Assembly (NCBI GenBank): GCA_002633005.1
Contig: NMRA01000239.1
Span: forward strand, 424,195-488,194
DNA: 64,000 bases
Reading direction: 5' to 3'
DNA from: Phoronis australis
Taxonomy: Eukaryota; Animalia; Phoronida
Below are positions 1-62,500 of the stretch, piece after piece. The position numbers and the translations under genes were made by a program. The notes under the pieces are model-generated. The model had not been told where the DNA came from. It searched no databases and saw nothing but the letters and a program-made list of their open reading frames with translations. Numbering within the stretch: the stretch's first letter is position 1; every line of letters starts with the position of its first letter.

Positions 1-495
1 TTTCTTTTAACGTCACTTAGATACCTCAAGTTGTAATTTCTGATAAAAGTGATAACTTTATTAATGTTTGTCTGGTTCCTGATTATCAAAGATTTAAAAA
101 AAAAATTGTTCACATGCTTTCAAATAAGTTTACCGTTTACAGGATACAATCTATAAATGAGTTAGATTTTTTATTTCAATTAATAAACATTTGATGAGAG
201 ATTGTTTACGTGAAGAGATGCCGTCCCCATTCTTCGACGAATACAGTCATAAAACCCATGTTGGAAAATATTATTTTTAAAGAACCCGGAAACTTGCTCG
301 GTGTTTTAGGTAACCAATCCGAATTTTTGTGACATGAAAGGCATTTCAAGACATTTTTCAAAACTCTTACATTTCAGTTTATTTTCAGAATTATTACAAG
401 TGAGAAATATGAACATTTCGGGAACATTTCGAAAAAAATTGAAATTGCGCGGAGTATAGGGGCTCCGGTCTTTCAATGCTATCGTGTAAACCTAC

Positions 496-827
496 CTTTG
501 TCGCCATATTATGTTTCTTTTGCGCTCGGTTGAAACTCGAATCGTTCCCGTTTCTCTTTCCAGACAAAAATTTACTCCTTTTGATTGTCCTGCGAATTAC
601 TCTTATATAGCAGAATGTAGTCACCGAAACTGGTATCACGAAAACACCACCAAACAAGCTAAGGACGTATGGCTTGCTGAGTTTGGTCCACTCCAGGCAG
701 CATGCTGTGCCAAACGGTTCGTTGCCATAGGAATGGGTGAGGAATAGGCCCGATGCCGCCCAGGAGCACGAATATAATATTATGGTCACCATGCAGACAA
801 CTTTGTGGTAGAATGCAATGTTTTTAT
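496..827 (-). CDS. Opsin (Opn5/neuropsin-like) internal exon: ICL2-TM4-ECL2-TM5-ICL3
   Basis: Acceptor tttttattttcAG (829-828), donor AAG|GTAGG (495-494). Encodes (Y)KNIAFYHKVVCMVTIILYSCSWAASGLFLTHSYGNEPFGTACCLEWTKLSKPYVLSLFGGVFVIPVSVTTFCYIRVIRRTIK...HNMATK: opsin ECL2 motif Y-x-x-E-P-F-G-T-x-C and TM5 P..CY. Phase 1 start, phase 0 end just before TM6. Confidence 0.9.
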
Positions 828-5325: not shown

Positions 5326-5473
5326 GAGTAGAGTTCAGTAACGCTAAGACGTCGCTAAAAAGCAAGACTTCGCGAGGTAACGAGATATTCCTGTGTTTTA
5401 AATGAGATCACGTGATCTTGGCTAAATTTTAGCGAGGTTCTAGCGTAAGTCCTAGCTTTACTGAAACTTACCC
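5326..5473. mobile_element. Palindromic MITE family A (TIR GGGTAGAGTTCAGT), copy 1
   Basis: gtagagttcagtaacgctaag...cgctaaaaagcaagacttcgcgag...tactgaaacttaccc; related copies at ~17995, 21940, 31981 and 49062. Confidence 0.8.
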
Positions 5474-9870: not shown

Positions 9871-10571
9871 CGCAAGAAATGTGTTAGTCACGGAGCATAA
9901 TGCGAGTTATTCTCGATTTTTTCACAACTGTCTACACTTTTGAGTGGATGAGGGTGTTCGAAATATCAAAGACTGACTGAGGAGTGCATGGGTAACATTA
10001 TGATTACGTGGGACGAATAGGCAGCAGGAACTTTGCGAATATAGCCAGTGTCGGTGACCACTGCATATGGTAGACGCAAGAATCTACTCGCGAAAAGGCA
10101 AGACCACGTAAGTCTTCGCGAGATATTGTTCATAGTAACGTCACAAGCTTTACTGGCGAGATTCTTGTGTCTACGGAACACAGCCAGGTTTTTGGCACAG
10201 CCATCTTGTCCGTAACTTGGTAGTTCGATCTTCACCCCGTGCTTTTTCTTTTTGCGTTTATTACTTCAAGTCATACGCAATAAATAGCGCAAGCAAATAC
10301 AACTACTCAAACAAAAGAAACAATTAGTTTTAAGCATTTAAATTGCATGATTTTAAAATATTCGACCACAGACTTGACACCAGTCGCTAATACAAATTCG
10401 TCTGCCAAACGTGATACTTTGGTGAAGGACCTTCTTCCTGACAGAGAATAAACTAATGTTGCCCGTGTAGAGCTCCAATCATTGTCATAAACAATGCTCA
10501 TTCAATGACTTTGCTATAATAGACCAAGCAGAAACAACAAAGAGGCTTAAAATTCGTGAGGCTCTACACAT

Positions 10572-10752
10572 CAATTGACCTATCGCCAGGATTTTGAGTG
10601 ACTTCTTAACTGACCATTTAGAACGCACCATTATTGACACACCTTCGTTTGCAAGCCGCCTTTTTACCCGACAAACGCCACGTTGCCGGGTAAAACTTAT
10701 TATTTAATAGTCGACATTACGCAAGGAGGTGGAGCTTGCGATAGGTCAATTG
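10572..10752. mobile_element. Small MITE with TIR CAATTGACCTATCGC
   Basis: caattgacctatcgc (10572) and gcgataggtcaattg (10738-10752) form a perfect 15-bp inverted repeat. Confidence 0.7.
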
Positions 10753-11559
10753 GTGCAAGACCAGTCTCAATAGGCAACTGGCACACCACAGGTTGCCATT
10801 GTTAGTATGGTCTATTTTTACTCCCCTGTAACTGACTGTGTCTGTGTTTCATTATTTCTTGTTGGGCCTAGCAAGGTGGTCACTGTTTTTTCTTCTGATG
10901 ATGGTTTCAATAAACGCCGAAACATGTCAAGCCGGTTTAAATCCATCGTCGTTTTTATTACCATATGCTTCTACTTGCTATCATGAAGAGAAAAAAATTA
11001 TCGCTTTTAAACGAAGAGTAAATAAAAATAATGTCATTTTTTAAATTGTTCAGCACGTGATGACATTGCTTTTCGTGACATATCACGATCCCACAATGCA
11101 TCACTTTGTTTGAAGTTATCAGATGATACGTCTTAATTGATTATTTTCCATTTTCCAATTATGGATCTTATGTTATGAACACGATATGTTAGTTGATTGC
11201 TTGGCTATAATTAATTCAAATTTAGTAGTCGTATTAACTGACCACAGTAATTGGTCTAGTGATATGCATGATTTGCTAGTGTAGACTCACTTTCAACCAA
11301 CAACAACCTCGAAACGGAATTCTATAATATGACCGATGAGGAGTTACCCTCTTATGTATTAGAGTCTACAAGTTAGACACTCTTAAACCATAACATGCTA
11401 TTGCTAGATATGCCAGGGTAACATTCACGGACCAAGATTCTGTAAATTTCGGGTGACAGCCTCTCTCCTCAAGCAAGACTCTCATACTTTTTCCCTGGTG
11501 TAACGGTTATGCATTTGTGCGCACGCCTTCAGGAATCGCTGAGTAATTCCTAAAAAGTA

Positions 11560-14502: not shown

Positions 14503-14610
14503 AAAACATGCCTGCGTATACGGCGGTGTGTCGAACGAGGCTGATGGCGGTAATTGACATGATGCTGAGAGTACCGGCCGCGAACACCGTAAAACCATAC
14601 ATCATACAAC
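14503..14610 (-). CDS. Opsin internal exon: TM3 (not in the ORF track)
   Basis: Acceptor ttttgttttgtcatAG, donor T|GTAAGT; 108 bp, phase 1/1. Encodes (G)CMMYGFTVFAAGTLSIMSITAISLVRHTAVYAGMF and joins both flanking exons in frame. Confidence 0.9.
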
Positions 14611-20439: not shown

Positions 20440-20616
20440 CGATCTGCCCAAATATCCATCGGTGACTGAAGCACGAAATGGCCGACATGAGTGATATTGT
20501 TGCATGCAGTGTGTCGTCAATGGCCAGGGTTGCCACTAACATGTCAAACAGGCTCCGTTTCTTGAGACGGTAAGTGTGGCGAAAGACGAAGAAGTTCAAA
20601 GAATAGCATAGCAGGC
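20440..20616 (-). CDS. Opsin internal exon: TM1-ICL1-TM2-ECL1
   Basis: Acceptor gttttattttacAG (20618-20617), donor G|GTGAGT; 177 bp, phase 1/1. Encodes (G)LLCYSLNFFVFRHTYRLKKRSLFDMLVATLAIDDTLHATISLMSAISCFSHRWIFGQI: N1.50, LAxxD and an Opn5-like ISCFxHRWxFG motif. Confidence 0.9.
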
Positions 20617-20629
20617 CTGTAAAATAAAA

Positions 20630-21636
20630 CATCTTTCTGTTTGGAACCCACCAGAAATTAAAACAACAAAAACTATCCCTTTCTATCAACGGTTCTCCCA
20701 TCGAGAATGTTGACAAGTTTAAGTACTTGGGCCTTATTTTAGATCCCAATCTTAAATTTAATATGCACACAGATCATATCACAAAGAAATTATCAAAGAA
20801 AATCGGTGTACTTAAACGTCTAGGCAAATTTCTTAATGTCAGTACTCTCAAGACTCTTTACCATTCTATTATTCAGCCTCATATTGATTATTGTATACCG
20901 GTTTGGGGGGCACACTAGTGACACACTTGTCAGCAAAGTCCAAGTAATCCAAAATAGAGCCGCCAGGGCTATCCTGGGTACTAGAATTAGGGACACTAGG
21001 GTTGACGACTTGTATTCCAAGCTGGGATTTATGAAAGTAAGACAAAGAAATAAAAATCTCTCTGTCTGTTGTATGTACAGATGTATCAATGGCTTGACTC
21101 CAGCAAATCTCAGCAGTAAATTCAATAGCAGTCAGGCTGTATATTCTACACGTTCTTCTGTTGCTGGCAATGTTTCTTCTAAAAAAATTAAAACCGAGAC
21201 GGGCAAGAGATCTTTTATCTATGCAGCTGCTGTAATATGGAATTATCTTAGCCCAGAAATTAAACGGTCCAATTCAATCACTACCTTTAAAGTAAATATT
21301 AAAAAGTGGCTGTAATTTACCTAACCTTTTATACCCTGCCTGTATTAATCATGTCATTTTTTCATTGTCGTAAATACTCTCACTGTCTAGAGTCATCTCT
21401 TAATTTATTTCATCTGTCTTAGTTAAATTTTTACCATTATTCGTCATTTAGTTAATGTCTTAATTCTCAACCTGTTTTAATTTTATCTTTGTTACGTATA
21501 TTTCATTGTTGTTTTATTACTTCATTGTATTATATTACTGTTTTTCTTGTTGAAGGCCCTCTTGGAAAGCAGTGCTATCACTGAAGAGGTCACCCTCATT
21601 TTAAATATCACAATAATAAATAAATAAATAAATAAA
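20630..21636 (+). mobile_element. 5'-truncated CR1/L2-clade LINE (RT C-terminus, 3'UTR, (AATA)n tail)
   Basis: FLFGTHQKL...VDKFKYLGLILDPNLKFNMH...YHSIIQPHIDYCIPVWG, a frameshift in a G run, then KVQVIQNRAARAILG...GKRSFIYAAAVIWNYLSPEIK*; ends in aataaataaata. Confidence 0.92.
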
Positions 21637-21939
21637 TGGACAAAACAATAATCTTCGAGAACAGAAACAGTTAAAAATTCGTTTATTTATTGAGACGTTT
21701 TATCGCGCTGGATTTTAAAATGTGGCTAAGGTTGTTAAATCTTCATTTGCATGGACTTGACTAAGTACATGTACGACCAACGACAGATTATGACGAGATT
21801 CTTATCATTAACAAATGTATGTCTTATGAAACGTTACAACGACGTTCAACTCTTTTGAGAGTAGACATATTTTAATTTTCATCAATGCACTTAGAATTTG
21901 ACCTGATATGAATACTGTGAATTAATTCACAGCATACCG

Positions 21940-25555: not shown

Positions 25556-26374
25556 ACTGCAGGAGTAAAACATTTATTCTGCAAGACTCATTTAATCATT
25601 CGACGGCAATGTGTTGTATTTGACAATTCACCCTCCCAAAAATAATTCATCATCGGAAATGTACCCTGACGATCTATTCTTAGTCCCTTCCTTTTTCCTT
25701 TCCGTAAATGACCTCCACAAATCCATATCGTTTGATACCCTTATGTGTACTGATGATACACACCTTCGTCTACAAAACCAAAAAACAACAAAACTGAAAT
25801 CAATAATAAGCTATCAGACATATTCACATAGTTATCAATCAACAAATTGCTGTTAAATGTCATCAAAACAAGACCCAAGACATTCCACTTCCCTCAGAAA
25901 AGTAGCACAAACATTAAAACTTAAGATAACTATAAATATTCAAAATCTTTTGTTAACAAGTACGNACTGCTGGAGTAAAACATTTATTCTGCAAGACTCA
26001 TTTAATCATTCGACGGCAATGTGTTGTATTTGACAATTCACCCTCCCAAAAATAATTCATCATCGGAAATGTACCCCGACGATCTATTCTTAGTCCCTTC
26101 CTTTTTCCTTTCCGTAAATGACCTCCACAAATCCATATCGTTTGATACCCTTATGTGTACTGATGATACACACCTTCGTCTACAAAACCAAAAAACAACA
26201 AAACTGAAATCAATAATAAGCTATCAGACATATTCACATAGTTATCAATCAACAAATTGCTGTTAAATGTCATCAAAACAAGACCCAAGACATTCCACTT
26301 CCCTCAGAAAAGTAGCACAAACATTAAAACTTAAGATAACTATAAATATTCAAAATCTTTTGTTAACAAGTACG
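25556..26374. repeat. 409-bp tandem duplication joined by a single N (probable assembly artefact)
   Basis: 25556-25964 and 25966-26374 are near identical (two mismatches seen); N at 25965. Confidence 0.9.
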
Positions 26375-41183: not shown

Positions 41184-42510
41184 AGGAGAAGGCAACCTTT
41201 TTCATGTCACTTTTAGCAAAAATAAGGTTCGTTGACTATCCCAGACACATTTTTCACTTAATTACAGCTTTTCGTAATTTGACTAATTTCTCGTCCTCTA
41301 CTCCGGAAGTGACGTTTTGGGAGGCAAGAATTTCGCGCCAATTTCTTTTCATTATAGTCTGACTGTGAGGGCTGTCGAGTCAGTCATTGTTCTATCTCAG
41401 TTGTGATAAGTTCGGTCGTCGTTTGCTTTTGTTTACAAGTCAGTCAACATGCCACGCTGTTGCTGCGTGCCGGGATGTATTCATTATCGTCTCACACGCG
41501 CTTTGGGTACCTTGCGTCTCTTTCCGACACACTTCGCCGTACTTGGCTAGCACGTTCATTTGAAGAACGCAGTGCTACCCGTCCACGCAACGTACAGAGC
41601 AGTGGAGGGTTACCGAGTGTGTGGCAAGCATTTTCTGCCGTCAGATTACGACAGAGATATGTTCGCTGAATTGAAGAAGGTCCCTGCGAAACAACGCCTG
41701 AAGAAGGGTACCATACCGTCGCTGTTTATTCCCGACAGTGCCCCGTCGCCAACCCCGAGAAGTGCGTTTTTGAAGCGAGAAGCCTCGCGAGCTGTGGCCG
41801 CTATATACAGTGACTAGAGGCACTTCATCTACTGTCACCCCTGCCTCCGAGCGTACCCCATTGCGTGCAATTCCGGGACCTAGCAGTGATTCGCCCTGTG
41901 CTGTTGTTTCTAGCCCAGAGCCTGTAAGCAGCCCTGCAGCGATGTCGAGTAGTGGGAGTGAATACAGGCCCAGTTCGACACCCTGTGAATAGGACAGTTC
42001 GTCATCCAATGAACAGATCGGTGAGCCTATAAGTTTGATAAGTTTATTGTGGACTTGTATTGGAGCTATTTAAAAGGTGCCAGGTGTGTAGCGAGGGAGT
42101 CACACGGCGGGATCTAAGCAGTTTCGGTGCTCAGATCACCCTCCAATGGGAGTGTGTCGCGAGACACTCGGGCAAGTGGGACAGTTCTTCCTCTGTACGT
42201 GAGACGATAATGAGTACACCCCAGTACGCAGCAACAGCGTGGCATGTTGACTGACTCGTAAGCAAAAGCAAACGACGACCGAACTTATCACAACCGAGGT
42301 AGAACAATAACTGACTCGACTGCTCTCACAGTCAGACTATATGAACAGAAATTGGCGCGAAATTCTTGCCTCCCAAAACGTCACTTCCGGAGTAGACGAC
42401 GAGTAATTAATTAAATTACGAAAAGCAATAAATAAGTGAAAAATATGTCTGGGATAATCGTCGAACCTCATTTTTGCTAAAAATGACATGAAAAAAGGTT
42501 GCCTTCGCCT
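41184..42510 (+). mobile_element. Kolobok-like non-autonomous DNA transposon with THAP domain
   Basis: TTAA|AGGAGAAGGCAACC...GGTTGCCTTCGCCT|TTAA with ~295-bp TIRs. Frameshifted THAP (MPRCCCVPGC...W...RVCGKHF...LKKGTIPSLF) and LFKRCQVC...WECVARHSGKWDS zinc ribbon; no catalytic core. Confidence 0.85.
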
Positions 42511-43532: not shown

Positions 43533-45528
43533 GTTTTATAGCACAGTATTTTAAAATACCGTTTTGCTTCATTTCATTAAAAACTTCATCAGAGGATCCG
43601 TAACGCAAATTAGTTCGGTTGACACTAAGCCCAATATTCGTACGACACAACTCCAAATATCATAAAACTTAACTGTAGTTAATGTTAATTTTTATCTTAT
43701 TTTTATTTGTGGTGGAGCAGGACCGTAATGAGTGACAGCCGACTGATGCATTATGGGTACTGACTGCCGCCATATGTAATGAGGTTTCTACGGAAACCCC
43801 GCCCGCACTTTTTCAAAATACTTCAAAAAAATTCATAGCAAAACAATTCATACAGAAACAAGGCTGAAAGCTACGAACTATTTTTATTTAAGTGATACAT
43901 GTATCTTTCAAACCGCAGAATTTACCATGTGCTCCGAATCGGTGAATGTAAGGGAACCGATATCTTTAAATGTATGTTAAATGTTAGACACACGCCCTGC
44001 TCTGATAATTGTCTGCAAACGTGAATAAAACATTGGTTTCGACTGACTTTCATAGACATCGTTAATTTGGGGAACTTAAAAAACACCAAGAAAATATAAT
44101 TTGTTTCGAAATGTAGTCACATTTGCGTAATTGAGGTTTACGGAAATTCCCGGAAGACATTCACCTAAATGTCAATAAAAAGTTTACCTACGTTACTTTA
44201 GAAACCGTTCATTATTGTCAAAGGATTTGTTGTTAGAATATACATTGTTATTGGATGGAAGTTGAACCTCAAGAGTCCCTTATCCGTTTGATATACTGTC
44301 AAACCTGCCGTCCCAAAGGCTCACTCTTTGACTTCACAACATCTACCACTCAAGAGTGTTACTTTTCCAGGAAAATCATCCACGGCTGGACATGGTTTTC
44401 TCGTGAATGTCGCTACACCGTATTTCGGTCTACCTCGTGGTGAAGATCTTCAGGACCTTGGCTACATTTTCTTTGAACAACGTTACTGATGTCATGATAT
44501 CCTAGATCAGCCACTGACACGATATTTGTAGATTTTATTTCAAACCCTTCTTATTGGCTACAGTTTTACGCAGCGTTCTTATTTCACAAGGACGTTACTA
44601 GACAATCGAAGCGCACGAACTTATAACCATGGTACAGAACCAATGAACGTCAACGTCAGACATGCGATCAAAATCAGACAAGTGATCAAAATACATGTAA
44701 CTTCATACGAACCACAGTGAGAACTACGTTTTTTCAAATGGTTCATACGTGTAAATGAGTCGATGATCTGTCTGATTTTGTTCAAATGACTGATTTTGCA
44801 CTTCGTACACGTCACACGTGGTGCTGTGAATCAGTGTTTCGAACGGATGATTGAGTTGTCCTGGCGTTTGGCCGTCCGGAGTTTTGTGAAGTTTCTCATG
44901 TTAAGTTGAAATGTAAACAATAACGCTTAAAATCGTGACGCGATAACCGACACAACTACACTTCACGTATATAAATGCTACTTACATATTAAAACAAGGT
45001 AAGTGCCTAGAACATAATCTTCCCAAGAGTCTAACTTTGAGACGTTGACTTGCCACTCGTTGACCGTCCGATTTACATGGTGAAAGTACTTAACCATGTT
45101 TCCTCGTCAACGCGTTATTACACAATGCACGCAGCGTCTTATCGATCAGTACTTATTCTTATAGAGACGTCGCGGTTTTAACTCAATCGCTACACACTAG
45201 GGGTGGGATGAAATGTGATTCGTTATACTCGTTACTATGCGACACATGCAGAAATCAAATACTTTGCGAAAATTCTAGATATTTTCACACGACGTTGAGA
45301 AGTTTCCTGAATCCTTCTGCTCTCTGTTGATGCTCCAACTTCAATGCAATAATGGGCCGCCATGCGTTTGACAACTATTTGCCTTGCATATTCTTGGGTT
45401 TCATCCACGCACCTTAAGACTGTTATCTACACAAACTACATCGGGAACAATGTGGCACATCCGCCACATGTCGGGAAAACCGCGGTCATCCAACAAAAGT
45501 TCAAATGTTCAATTTCCGCGGCGGTCTT

Positions 45529-45847
45529 CAGTGGCGGATTTAGAGGGGGGGNNNNNNNNNNNNNNNNNNNNNNNNNNNNNNNNNNNNNNNNNNNNNNNNN
45601 NNNNNNNNNNNNNNNNNNNNNNNNNNNNNNNNNNNNNNNNNNNNNNNNNNNNNNNNNNNNNNNNNTGAATAAACAATGCATAGGCCCTGACCAAACCCCG
45701 TTTACCTTTTTTTAGTCAAAAAGTCCGCAAACCCAAAAATTCGAGACCTCCTGCATCCCTACATTTTAGGCTGGGCGGGCGCATCTGCCGAAATTCTGGT
45801 GATTCCTGTGCCCTGCCCCCCAACTCAAAATCTTGGATCCGCCCCTG
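45529..45847. mobile_element. hAT-like MITE family B with 5-bp TSD (gtctt)
   Basis: gtctt|cagtggcggatttag...cttggatccgcccctg|gtctt; contains the N gap; inverted homologue of 57921-58196. Confidence 0.85.
45552..45665. other. Assembly gap (114 N)
   Basis: Run of N directly after a poly-G tract. Confidence 1.
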
Positions 45848-46879: not shown

Positions 46880-47472
46880 CTGGGGGTACGTTTAGAGGCA
46901 CTGGTGGCAGTAGATGAAGGACCTCCAGTCACTGCAGAGGCCACCGCTCTTTAGGCTTCTCGCCGGGAATCAATAGCGACGGTATGGCACCCTTCTTCAG
47001 ACGCTGTTTTGCAGGAACCTTCACCAATTCCGCGCACATTTCTCTTTCGGAATCCAACGGCAAAAATGCCTGCCACACACTCGGTAATTCTCCACTGGTT
47101 GTACGTTGAGTGGATGGGTAACGCTGCGTTCTTCACCCGAACGAGCCAACTACGGTGGAGTGTGTCATCTTTCGGAAAGCGATGTAATGGCATATCTAAC
47201 GTGCGCGTAAGACGATAATGAGTGCACCCCGGTGCGCAGAAACCGTGCAGAATGTTCACTGACTCGTAAACAAACGGAAATGACAACCAAACTTATCACA
47301 ACCGAGGTAAAACAATGACTGACCCGACAGCTCACACAGTCAGACTATATGAAAACAAAATTATGGCGGGGAATTCTTAACCCCTAAACGTCATTTCTGG
47401 TGTACGGATATGTCTAGGATAATCAACGAACGGTATTTTTGTTAAAAACGACATGAAAAAAGGTTGCCTTCG
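46880..47472 (-). mobile_element. Truncated relative of the Kolobok/THAP element at 41184
   Basis: Shares the terminus (gaaggcaaccttttttcatgtc) and THAP: CAPGCTHYRLTRTLDMPLHRFPKDDTLHRSWLVRVKNAALP. Confidence 0.85.
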
Positions 47473-52559: not shown

Positions 52560-52870
52560 CTAATCAAACGAAACAAACAGGTGACGATATTGAAAATGAT
52601 TGGTTCACCAATGCGCCCTCTACAGGAGAAAATGTTTTAAAAATTACTTACTACCTGTTTCCCAAGGATCAAGAACTGCATTAAACATTGGTCAGACACA
52701 TCGGTAGAGCTGGTAGCAAAGGCTGACTTTGTGAATTCTTTCCGACTTCATAGCATGTGCAGCGATCATTTTGAGGGCGGCAAGAAAACGTATCTTGGAA
52801 ACTGTCCAACAAAATTTCCCTTGAAAGAAAAAGTAACAAATACTCCACGGCGGATGGTAGTGAAATAAAA
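52560..52870 (+). mobile_element. THAP-domain remnant of a DNA transposon
   Basis: FPKDQEL...W and MCSDHFEGGKKTYLGNCPTKFP. Confidence 0.65.
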
Positions 52871-59570: not shown

Positions 59571-62500
59571 TCACCCTAACCAAGGTTTATGTAAAACTGA
59601 AACAAAGTGTCAAGTTTGTCTCAGTAGAATCGATACAATTTGCAATGCCTTTGGAGTATTCGTGAGTGCAAATGTTTTGAGAAACCAACAATGAATAGAT
59701 CATACAGCGTTACCGACTTCAAATGCAATAAAATTGGAATTGACCGGGCGCCCGAGGTCGTGTGAGCGCATGCTAATACAGTGCTTGCCGACAGAAAGCT
59801 GTTGTTAAACAATTAGTTGATTTTATTTGCTATGGTCATATGTTAGGGGAATCTTTATTTAGATATAAATTCATTAATCGAATCATTGTTTTTTACAACT
59901 TTTCGCCCTGACGCGGTTCTGTGAAAGGAGGAACTGACTTCGCGGCCCCCGACAAGTAAGTAGATTTGCAATTTCGGGGCCAACTCATCAAAATAAATCA
60001 CGTGCAAATTATTTCATTGGTTCAGTAGTCTAGTCTTTTCTTGACTGGAAGTCCAGTTTTCAACTTAGGCAGCCGTCTATCTCGGCTGCTTTATGTTCTT
60101 GATATCTCCAGTCAGCGACGGGCCTCGTCGGGTTCCGCAGATTCGCAACTCCGACATTTACTTATGTGCTAGCCAAGAGGCGCCGCCACTCTACTAAATT
60201 TTCTGGTGCAGTTTCCGGTTAGTATATTTTGACGAGAAATATGTTCATCTTCGTTACTGTCCAGTACAACGAAAAAAATATTAATTTCGGCAGTGAAAAG
60301 CTGTTTAAAGTCTTCCAATAGAAGAAGTGTTGGTATCGTGAGTACTTTTGGCAATGCTACTGGTAATTAATGACAAAATTCAAACTTCGGTGCCGACTTA
60401 TTATGTCGTCTGCTTGCCCAATTGGAGCACAGTTATCGGATAGTCTGTGATATATGGTTCATATAGGCCTACTGAGAAAACAACGAAAGCATGCTTGTGC
60501 ATAAATTCCAAGGAGTACCTGTGAATGCAAAAGATACTTATATAGCGTTTTTGGTTTAGAAAAATATTAATTTTGTTCGAATTAAAAATGCGCCTCTGCA
60601 GCGATTTGACTAGTGTAACCTTTGCATGTTTATAATTCAACATTCTCAAGTGAGCAGCTCTTCTGGGAAGTGTTGAGTGGCCCTTAAAAGGGCCGTTGGT
60701 TGTACTGTGAATGAGCCTTAGGTATAGCGTGAAATGGTTCTTAAAAGAACCGTTGAATAATTCAACATAAATCACACAGTATACTGTGCTCACTCAAGTA
60801 CTGAAGGTCCTCTTCATTCAAGTTTTCATCAGGGAAGGTTGGATGAAAACAGAGGAGATGACAATATCGATGACAGTTGTAACGCTGTTACCGTTCTCCA
60901 ACGTTATCACGAGCCCCGCCTCTTTCAGTTCTTGTTCCTGGATTCAGAAGTAACCCTGAACCGTAGGGAAAAAGACATACAACAAAAACGAATCAAATTT
61001 TGAAAATCATCGCCTTCGTACGATTCCGTGTTGCTGTCGCCAGACTGATGTTCCTCCCCAACATCAATGTCAAAAATCGACGTTACAAGTGATGGAAACT
61101 TGTGTCCTTTGTTTCTAGCTTTTAACCCATTTTTTAAGGAAGGGGTGTACTGATTTTGTCTAATGTTGATAGAGCATAACTTTTGGTTTTTACAATGCAA
61201 TAATTGTGTTGAATGCATTCATATTAAGTGGCTCCATTGAGTTGAACAGAAAATAAATTAAATGTAACACAACAAAGTTTTGAAAGTAATTAGAGCAGTA
61301 ACAGGACTCCCCAAGAATCGAGCTGTTTTCGAAAACTTTGCGCCATTGGTGATCTGATTGGTTCATGCATTTACGGCGGGAAAATAATAAGACCAAGTAT
61401 CGTGCAGGTGTGAACTGTAGCAACACTTTGTATCTTATTCTTATTTGGCCAATCTGTTGATACAGTAAAATTCATAATTAATGCCCATCCTGATTTGACT
61501 GCAACTTGAGATTGTTGGGTTCTATCATATATTGGGTTGGCATTGGGACCCACATGGTGCTTAATCGAATGGGCTTCATTTTACCAACTATTTCAAATTG
61601 TGTTGGTGAAGTAAATAAACAAAGTGGGTGATTATCATCACCGAAATTTCATCATTAGTATCTTTTGCCGGGTGCTCAAATTTTCTGAGACTAGGTATTG
61701 TCAGATTTGTAAGGTAGAAGTGTTTCGCTGGATTTCCAGGTCTGTGGCGTTATTTATACCGGACAAAAATTTAAAAAACGAGACCTTTGTTTAAATCAGG
61801 AGCTGCATGATACACGTTTTACCACACGTGCGCAGGCAGCGCATGTGGGCCCATTGCACTGATCACTTGGAACCACTTTTATGGTTTATTAATATATAGT
61901 TAAACCATGCTGAGGAGCTTGAAACCTGATTCACGGCAATTTTTGGCAGTGGGATTTTCTGAAAAATGCTCGCAAGTTAACAACAAAATTTGACAGCAAT
62001 GCATTGCAGTTTTATAGAAACTCTGTCATAGCTTACAGATGCGTCACAGAGCGTACATTTGATGAATTCTAGCTTACGATTTCACCTGTTTGGGAGACCG
62101 GGTTTCAACCACTTTTGGGCCCCCCTTCCTGAAGCGGATTTTTCTAAGCGCCCTGGCCGCTTATTAGGGTGAATATGGTAATGTTTCAGAAGGGCGATAC
62201 TTAGTACCCTTTATGCACGGGACCGTTTTGTTACATTAGGAGTGGGATTGGCTCATTATGTACCCCACAGATGACATAGGACTTTACAAAACTGGTTGAA
62301 GAATTTTGTTTTCGTCATAAACGTTCGTTTGAAAGGCTTAAGTTTGGAAATGTTAGGAATTAAGGCGGAAATTTAAAAAACCATCAGTCCGCTTACAAAA
62401 ATTTAACATTGAAGAATAAAAACAACTTTACACCCCTCTGGTTTTCCTGTTCCATGTTTTCAAAGAAGGTGGTTGCATTTTCATAGACTGCAGTCGAGAG

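Follow-up and report, generated by a model that had tools for sequence, protein, structure and literature searches.

The 64-kb window, by which we mean the whole stretch of DNA that was analysed, contains four coding exons on the minus strand, running in order from 45097 to 496 (Table 1), and these most likely belong to an opsin-family gene of the neuropsin (Opn5) group. When joined, the exons (112 + 177 + 108 + 332 = 729 nt) give 243 stop-free codons from the Met to the end of ICL3, with canonical splice sites and introns of about 24.4, 5.8 and 13.7 kb. An earlier note on this DNA had proposed joining three exons; the open frame bears out the joining, with the addition of exon 1, which had been overlooked. 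The exon or exons for TM6-TM7, including the Lys296 site, are located past the left end of the window, and an ORF-piece search with an opsin HMM found no TM6 or TM7 piece anywhere within it.

Table 1. Positions in the window of the exons, loop codons and shared tract of the opsin-family gene
Feature	Position	Strand	Description
Exon 1	44986..45097	-	112 nt from ATG; N-terminus and first half of TM1; phase-1 donor GTAAGT
Exon 2	20440..20616	-	177 nt, phase 1/1; end of TM1, TM2, ECL1; AG acceptor, GTGAGT donor; E 6e-7
Exon 3	14503..14610	-	108 nt, phase 1/1; TM3; E 5e-5; splice to exon 4 in RNA
Exon 4	496..827	-	332 nt, phase 1/0; TM4, ECL2, TM5, ICL3; donor GTAGGT; RNA depth
Start of intron 4	1..495	-	Zero read depth below 496
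ECL2 residues 178-191	688..729	-	Frame 825-496
ECL2 codons	Y178 729-727; E181 720-718; A186 705-703; C187 702-700; C188 699-697; W191 690-688	-	
TM3 codons in exon 3	C110 14608-14606; Y113 14599-14597	-	
Tract common to paralogue	629..744	-	93% identity (ECL2 and start of TM5); 60% identity on flanks

Exons and transcription

The opsin HMM, made from 25 full-length opsins that were nearly all from Group 4, returned three significant pieces out of 3465 ORF pieces (E 9e-22, 6e-7 and 5e-5), all collinear on the minus strand, with the next piece at 0.64. Exon 1 fell under the threshold of this HMM. It scored E 6e-5, with the runner-up among the 3465 pieces at 0.48, against a profile of 13 neuropsin N-termini that was made after the exon 1 candidate had been spotted, from rows independent of that candidate. 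Exon 1 carries two N-x-S/T sites (N-glycosylation sequons) and a neuropsin-type S-K-L motif ahead of TM1; the S-[KR]-L pattern was taken from the reference rows and is found in scallop neuropsin too. Another candidate for exon 1, at 21525-21686, overlapped the profile range of exon 2 and was of low complexity, and was therefore dropped.

Exon 2 encodes L-N at 1.49-1.50, retains D83 and has W103 in ECL1; the helix proline of TM2 is absent, with a one-residue gap. The residues of exon 3 include C110, Y113, G114, F118, G121 and S124, with V-R-H replacing D-R-Y, and those of exon 4 include I161, W167 and G171 in TM4 and F212 and P215 in TM5. At all sites except 167, 177-192 and 212, the bovine numbering is the one that we take to apply. 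Pfam 7tm_1 matched exon 4 at E 1e-7, over the curated cut-off, and an AlphaFold model of this exon (pLDDT 85) folded as a helix, two short strands and a helix. Foldseek with this fragment model gave zero matches at E 0.001, and in the PDB exon 4 by itself matched only peptide and amine GPCRs, weakly, the query being too short to discriminate.

The gene is transcribed and spliced. Raw RNA runs with the same species label were used, about one fifth of each being read, with three runs on 380-960. Over this region there were 35 reads (21, 6 and 8 in the three runs), in all of which the first mate was on the plus strand, as expected for minus-strand RNA in a stranded library. The read depth was confined to 496-827, with 1 and 2 reads ending exactly at the exon 4 donor. 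The junction 827/14503 between exons 3 and 4, with CT..AC ends, was found in 4 reads with 2 starts in run X7 and in zero reads in X5, X6 and X8. The spliced transcript that the earlier note had presumed is thus present in these junction reads and in the stranded RNA. The RNA takes the GT donor at 14503, which rules out a GC donor for exon 3, and the exon 1-2 and 2-3 splices are those predicted from the sequence.

Rfam and tRNA scans gave no match inside the gene. Within intron 1, two overlapping frames at 20628-21312 (+) begin some 12 bases away from the acceptor of exon 2; by eye they resemble a LINE reverse transcriptase in its C-terminal part (no Pfam match). THAP-domain fragments at 41551-41814 (+), 46954-47292 (-) and 52641-52865 (+) scored E 5e-4, 2e-4 and 0.036, below the Pfam cut-off, and are probably transposon remains; one of them is in intron 1. 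An identical 86-codon frame is present twice, at 25596-25853 and 26006-26263, 410 bases apart and with an N at 25965, which could be a tandem duplicate or an assembly artefact. Short intronic repeats at 5333-5460 and 10470-10900, seemingly of one repeat family, have hundreds of RNA reads on both strands. Some 450 bases upstream of the ATG, at about 45550-45665, there is an assembly gap (a run of N), which may interrupt the promoter or an untranslated exon. At 60653-60699 (-) there is an Rfam Histone3 stem-loop (35.1 bits, cut-off 34), with no histone frame within 700 bases upstream.

A second transcript with the same loop

Thirteen of the 35 reads were at least 99% alike to the window. A second transcript accounts for 16 of the 21 reads in X5 and for all six in X6, so that this paralogue is commoner than the window gene in two of the three runs; it is absent from the window itself, where its best match was 19/30 letters. 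Within the tract common to both (Table 1) there are 8 differences, which leave 5 codons synonymous and 2 changed, with residues 178-191 of ECL2 unaltered. Each flank is identical at 18/30 letters and in frame, and 14/20 flank residues are similar at the protein level. Third positions differ at 6/38 codons of the core vs 17/20 codons of the flanks (Fisher p 4e-7, which is inflated because the reads were recruited via the alike part).

The 17/20 flanking codons rule out the variant reads as an allele, and the 6/38 codons of the core rule them out as a uniformly diverged sister species. The likely explanation is that the paralogue is old and the tract was shared recently, gene conversion having probably acted over ECL2 and the start of TM5. 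Cys188 is present in both paralogues, and among the variant letters listed there were none at 697-702, the codons of C187 and C188.

The Cys188 loop and the probable place of the gene among neuropsins

In TM1-TM5, the part of the class A 7TM fold covered here, both cysteines of the C110-C187 pair are in register, and the counterion layout is present, with E181 and a neutral Y113. The earlier note had read Y178, E181, C187 and C188 in ECL2 and C110 and Y113 in TM3, all of which were found in register on the minus strand; the interval that it gave for the loop, 676-730, does span it but is itself out of frame. The site numbering was tied to the tryptic peptide of chicken Opn5L1 (PMC5871776) and to squid rhodopsin 2z73. 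The chicken peptide comes from an E177K/Q192K mutant and carries the retinal on its second cysteine, which is Cys188 (PMC5871776). The window loop aligns with it ungapped, with 10/14 residues identical, so the earlier note was right to describe the Opn5L1 loop as very close. The exact chicken peptide is contained in one of our collected proteins, P0054. In 2z73 the position after the disulphide cysteine is Ser, and squid is given as Ser188 (PMC8766551).

The pocket residues Y113, G114, F118, G121, W167, Y178, E181, W191 and F212 are retained. The helix prolines of TM2 and TM4 are both absent, and these losses, together with the long branch described below, may reflect a changed or decaying pocket. 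Among the 89 ECL2 motifs in 106 collected proteins, position 188 was Thr in 50, Ser in 27, Ala in 7 and Cys in 5. The five with Cys were a bird OPN5 fragment and four ORFs without names, which formed one clade (99/99) of the vertebrate Opn5L1 type. The Opn5L1 motif occurs at least 230 times in the supplement of PMC9368030, and the small part inspected, together with 15 of the 18 related C-C sites, was all vertebrate.

HMMER with exon 4 over 1.84 billion representatives gave 66 matches at E 0.001 or better, with no close relative among them, as the full-length identity was never above the low 40s. Thirty were looked up and 20 bear names or organisms; every family name is an opsin, including slug Opsin-5A, crustacean opsin-5, fish opsin 9, a bird OPN5 fragment, Go-opsins, r-opsin-like and peropsin-like proteins. 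Word-seeded protein searches gave nothing for exon 4 against longer proteins, and 6 and 22 alignments in the others, without a close relative. The top BLAST rows for the joined protein were prawn Opn5, lungfish Opn5m and whelk Opn5 at 31-34%, and the best identity to any relative was about 32-34%. The ESM Atlas, searched with an annelid homologue, returned only generic 7tm_1 rows. With a profile of exon 4 and its matches, 31 opsin chains outranked every other GPCR in the PDB. The named matches and this ranking agree with the earlier note in pointing to an opsin and not another GPCR.

Maximum likelihood (ML) trees were made from 33 rows and 200 columns under LG+C20; the other 23 of the 56 rows, namely redundant ones, short ORFs, outgroups that are not opsins, one cnidarian-like row and one from oyster, were kept out of the careful tree. 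In a further ML tree, columns 186 and 188 and five more rows were removed. Rows with vaguer source names carry the labels Opn5m, Opn6/8 and Go that we assume to fit them. The window protein was placed inside the neuropsins with 86/97 support (67/89 after the removal) and in a lophotrochozoan group of gastropod, annelid and unnamed rows with 66/79 (73/80 after the removal), on a branch 1.7-1.85 in length. In FastTree and in one quick tree it was drawn towards r-opsin and other long branches. A union with Opn5L1, whose rows in these trees are fragments, was recovered in none of the four free trees; the AU test gave this sisterhood p 0.41, or 0.17 when columns 186 and 188 were left out and fewer rows used, and gave p 0.29 for a place outside the neuropsins and p 0.41 for one with Go-opsins, so that none of these placements is rejected.

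On the subfamily, discrete characters are clearer than the trees. The distance from C187 to P215 is 23 in the window and in 19 of the 89 collected motifs, a count drawn from matches that were gathered with exon 4 itself and are therefore biased to rows of equal loop length. Five of these motifs have names, four from gastropods and one from Capitella, and Platynereis neuropsin likewise has 23; all rows of vertebrate or crustacean Opn5, of Go-opsins, of peropsin and of r-opsin have 26 or 28. In three unnamed opsin-like exon ORFs (P0013, P0046 and P0061) it is 15, which may come from the regex or be a true deletion. W161 is lost in the window, as in every protostome neuropsin row covering the site, and is kept in intact vertebrate rows. 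The L-N at 1.49-1.50 in TM1 is that of the slug row (the L/M-N type), whereas vertebrates and crustaceans have G-N.

Intron positions were compared with predicted Opn5 isoforms and exon ORFs only. In that comparison, exon 2 has the boundaries of the segment that a predicted isoform of lobster Opn5 leaves out (P0059 vs P0105), the boundaries of exon 3 approximate the segment absent from a partial Platynereis neuropsin, and the boundaries of exon 4 equal those of Opn5 exon ORFs.

A lophotrochozoan-type neuropsin with a convergent Cys188 is therefore probable from these sequence characters, since they match snail- and annelid-type neuropsins and three ML trees never join the protein to Opn5L1. 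The rows nearest by tree path are slug Opsin-5A (BBH84661.1; PMC10729476), Biomphalaria opsin-5A, Capitella ELT87227.1 and Platynereis neuropsin AIT11645.1, which share with the window the distance of 23, the loss of W161, the L-N of TM1 and the intron before C110. They differ from it in having Thr or Ser at 188 (Ala in Platynereis) and, in most, in lacking Y113, and the identity is about 31%.

The earlier note had taken the gene as Opn5L1/Opn7-like and had left orthology and convergence side by side. Orthology would mean a true invertebrate Opn5L1/Opn7, with Cys188 and the reverse photocycle inherited from the bilaterian ancestor and lost in most lineages. Vertebrate Opn5L1 and fish Opn7 (chicken Opn5L1, PMC5871776; zebrafish Opn7b, PMC8302595) do share with the window 10 of 14 loop residues, A186, C187, C188, the Y113/E181 pair, F212, the exon 4 boundaries and, probably, the neuropsin group, and the AU test does not reject the sisterhood. 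However, A186 is paired with Ser or Thr188 in 6 of 11 collected rows, and Phe212, although given as a mark of Opn5L1 together with Phe or Tyr at 167 (PMC8766551), is also found in Go-opsins, peropsin, r-opsin and squid rhodopsin and is thus uninformative. The window has Trp at 167, G114/F118 in place of Ala/Val, no W161 and a loop to TM5 shorter by 3-5 residues, and it retains R135; the Cys135 and long linker were seen in the Opn5L1/Opn7 sequences examined, which is a mark of our own and not a published definition. The protein is also not sister to Opn5L1 in any free tree, the host is likely a marine invertebrate, and many losses would be required. Orthology is therefore quite improbable, and of the two routes convergence is the better one.

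The predicted photocycle

With about even odds, we read the gene as an expressed, fast-evolving snail/annelid-type Opn5 with a convergent Cys188, predicted to be a photocyclic pigment. In such a pigment, retinal would be bound at Lys296, a site outside the window, with Glu181 as the counterion. Light would isomerise the retinal, and its thermal reversion would be made possible by the thiol of Cys188, which would adjoin the C11=C12 bond, so that a single retinal could be reused.

Four Cys188 opsins have been described in the published material consulted. Opn5L1, with all-trans retinal bound, activates Gi in the dark; light turns it off, and it is reset via a Cys188-retinal adduct (PMC5871776). 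The engineered Xenopus Opn5m T188C binds no retinal isomer other than all-trans and recovers within seconds to a minute (time constants 0.11 and 39 s), over 200-fold faster than Opn5L1 and with no adduct seen (PMC8766551). Bovine G188C self-regenerates, binds 11-cis retinal and is switched on by light, i.e. forward (PMC8871353). Coral AtAntho2c, a natural and separately arisen invertebrate Cys188 opsin, likewise self-regenerates, binds 11-cis retinal and is light-on (bioRxiv 10.64898/2026.05.24.727572, a 2026 preprint). All four self-regenerate, and the cycle is reverse in 2/2 Opn5 frames and 0/2 outside them; therefore Cys188 predicts self-regeneration, and a reverse cycle only within Opn5 frames. 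The window shares with the coral and bovine pigments the Cys188 on which their thermal recovery depends, and differs from them in opsin group. The earlier note had called the pigment reverse because of Cys188 alone, which goes too far, as these two are photocyclic but forward.

The best experimental model would be Xenopus Opn5m T188C, since the window combines an Opn5m-like pocket (W167, G114, F118 and G121) with Cys188, which suggests all-trans binding and a cycle faster than that of Opn5L1; the mutant differs in being engineered, in having L212 and in its vertebrate loop length. By analogy with these pigments, a reverse direction (dark-active, light-off, Gi/o) is more likely than a forward one, at about 60:40, because all-trans retinal is the only form bound by the two Cys188 pigments studied with an Opn5 frame. 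If Lys296 is present, photocyclic behaviour is probable on the same analogy; a pigment that is both reverse and G-protein-coupled is more doubtful.

One alternative is that Lys296 is present and Cys188 is functionally quiet, so that the protein would be an ordinary bistable neuropsin, like slug Opn5A/B and shrimp Opn5a, or an all-trans-binding photoisomerase with no G-protein output. The protostome Opn5s assayed to date, the slug pigments among them, are light-activated 11-cis pigments (PMC10729476, PMC12221356), the pocket is unlike that of Opn5L1 at 114, 118 and 167 and in loop length, and a full mimicry of Opn5L1 takes changes beyond T188C (PMC8766551). We nevertheless consider this unlikely, as thermal recovery was found with Cys188 in all four backgrounds, from three separate opsin groups, and as both paralogues have kept the cysteine.

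Another alternative concerns Lys296 itself. This lysine has been lost in gluopsins, some astropsins and nemopsins, and the gene could likewise encode a neuropsin-derived, light-blind receptor, in which Cys188 would be a by-product of fast evolution or have a role with another ligand. The long branch, the lost helix prolines, the altered entry from TM4 to ECL2 and V-R-H for D-R-Y would all fit such a receptor; Group 4 includes lysine-less opsin clades (PMC9368030) and lophotrochozoans have lysine-less pseudopsins (PMC10097855). However, the retinal-facing residues on TM3, ECL2 and TM5 are retained, the lysine is kept in every full-length neuropsin row of the alignment, and V-R-x is also found in crustacean Opn5 and vertebrate Opn6/8-type rows. 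Lysine loss is therefore rather improbable, and the retained pocket residues make the presence of Lys296 likely, with the long branch and lost prolines counting against it.

Opn5L1 is described as the sole known photocyclic animal opsin, with Cys188 seldom seen elsewhere (PMC12579811, 2025). With the coral preprint, a Cys188 photocycle has already been published for an invertebrate, and the natural self-regenerating animal opsins in the literature searched are Opn5L1 (reverse) and coral Antho2c (forward) only. No Cys188 opsin of a bilaterian invertebrate was found in that literature, although the alignment figures and supplements of key papers may list some.

Returning to the photocyclic reading, a neuropsin that naturally has both Cys188 and an Opn5m-like pocket (W167, F118 and R135) is the counterpart of the engineered Opn5m T188C, and the window gene therefore offers a direct test of whether the scaffold and one cysteine are enough for reverse signalling. 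As the two paralogues have one common loop, the effect of the loop can be separated from that of the scaffold. If functional, the pigment would be the third to have arisen independently, and would provide a new template for optogenetic GPCR tools that light switches off or that reset themselves. A bolder and tentative possibility is that a protostome-type neuropsin independently re-evolved the reverse photocycle of Opn5L1, with two old paralogues sharing the loop by gene conversion. If this is true, they would be a natural pair of light-off timers and, within the literature searched, the first reverse photocyclic opsin outside vertebrates.
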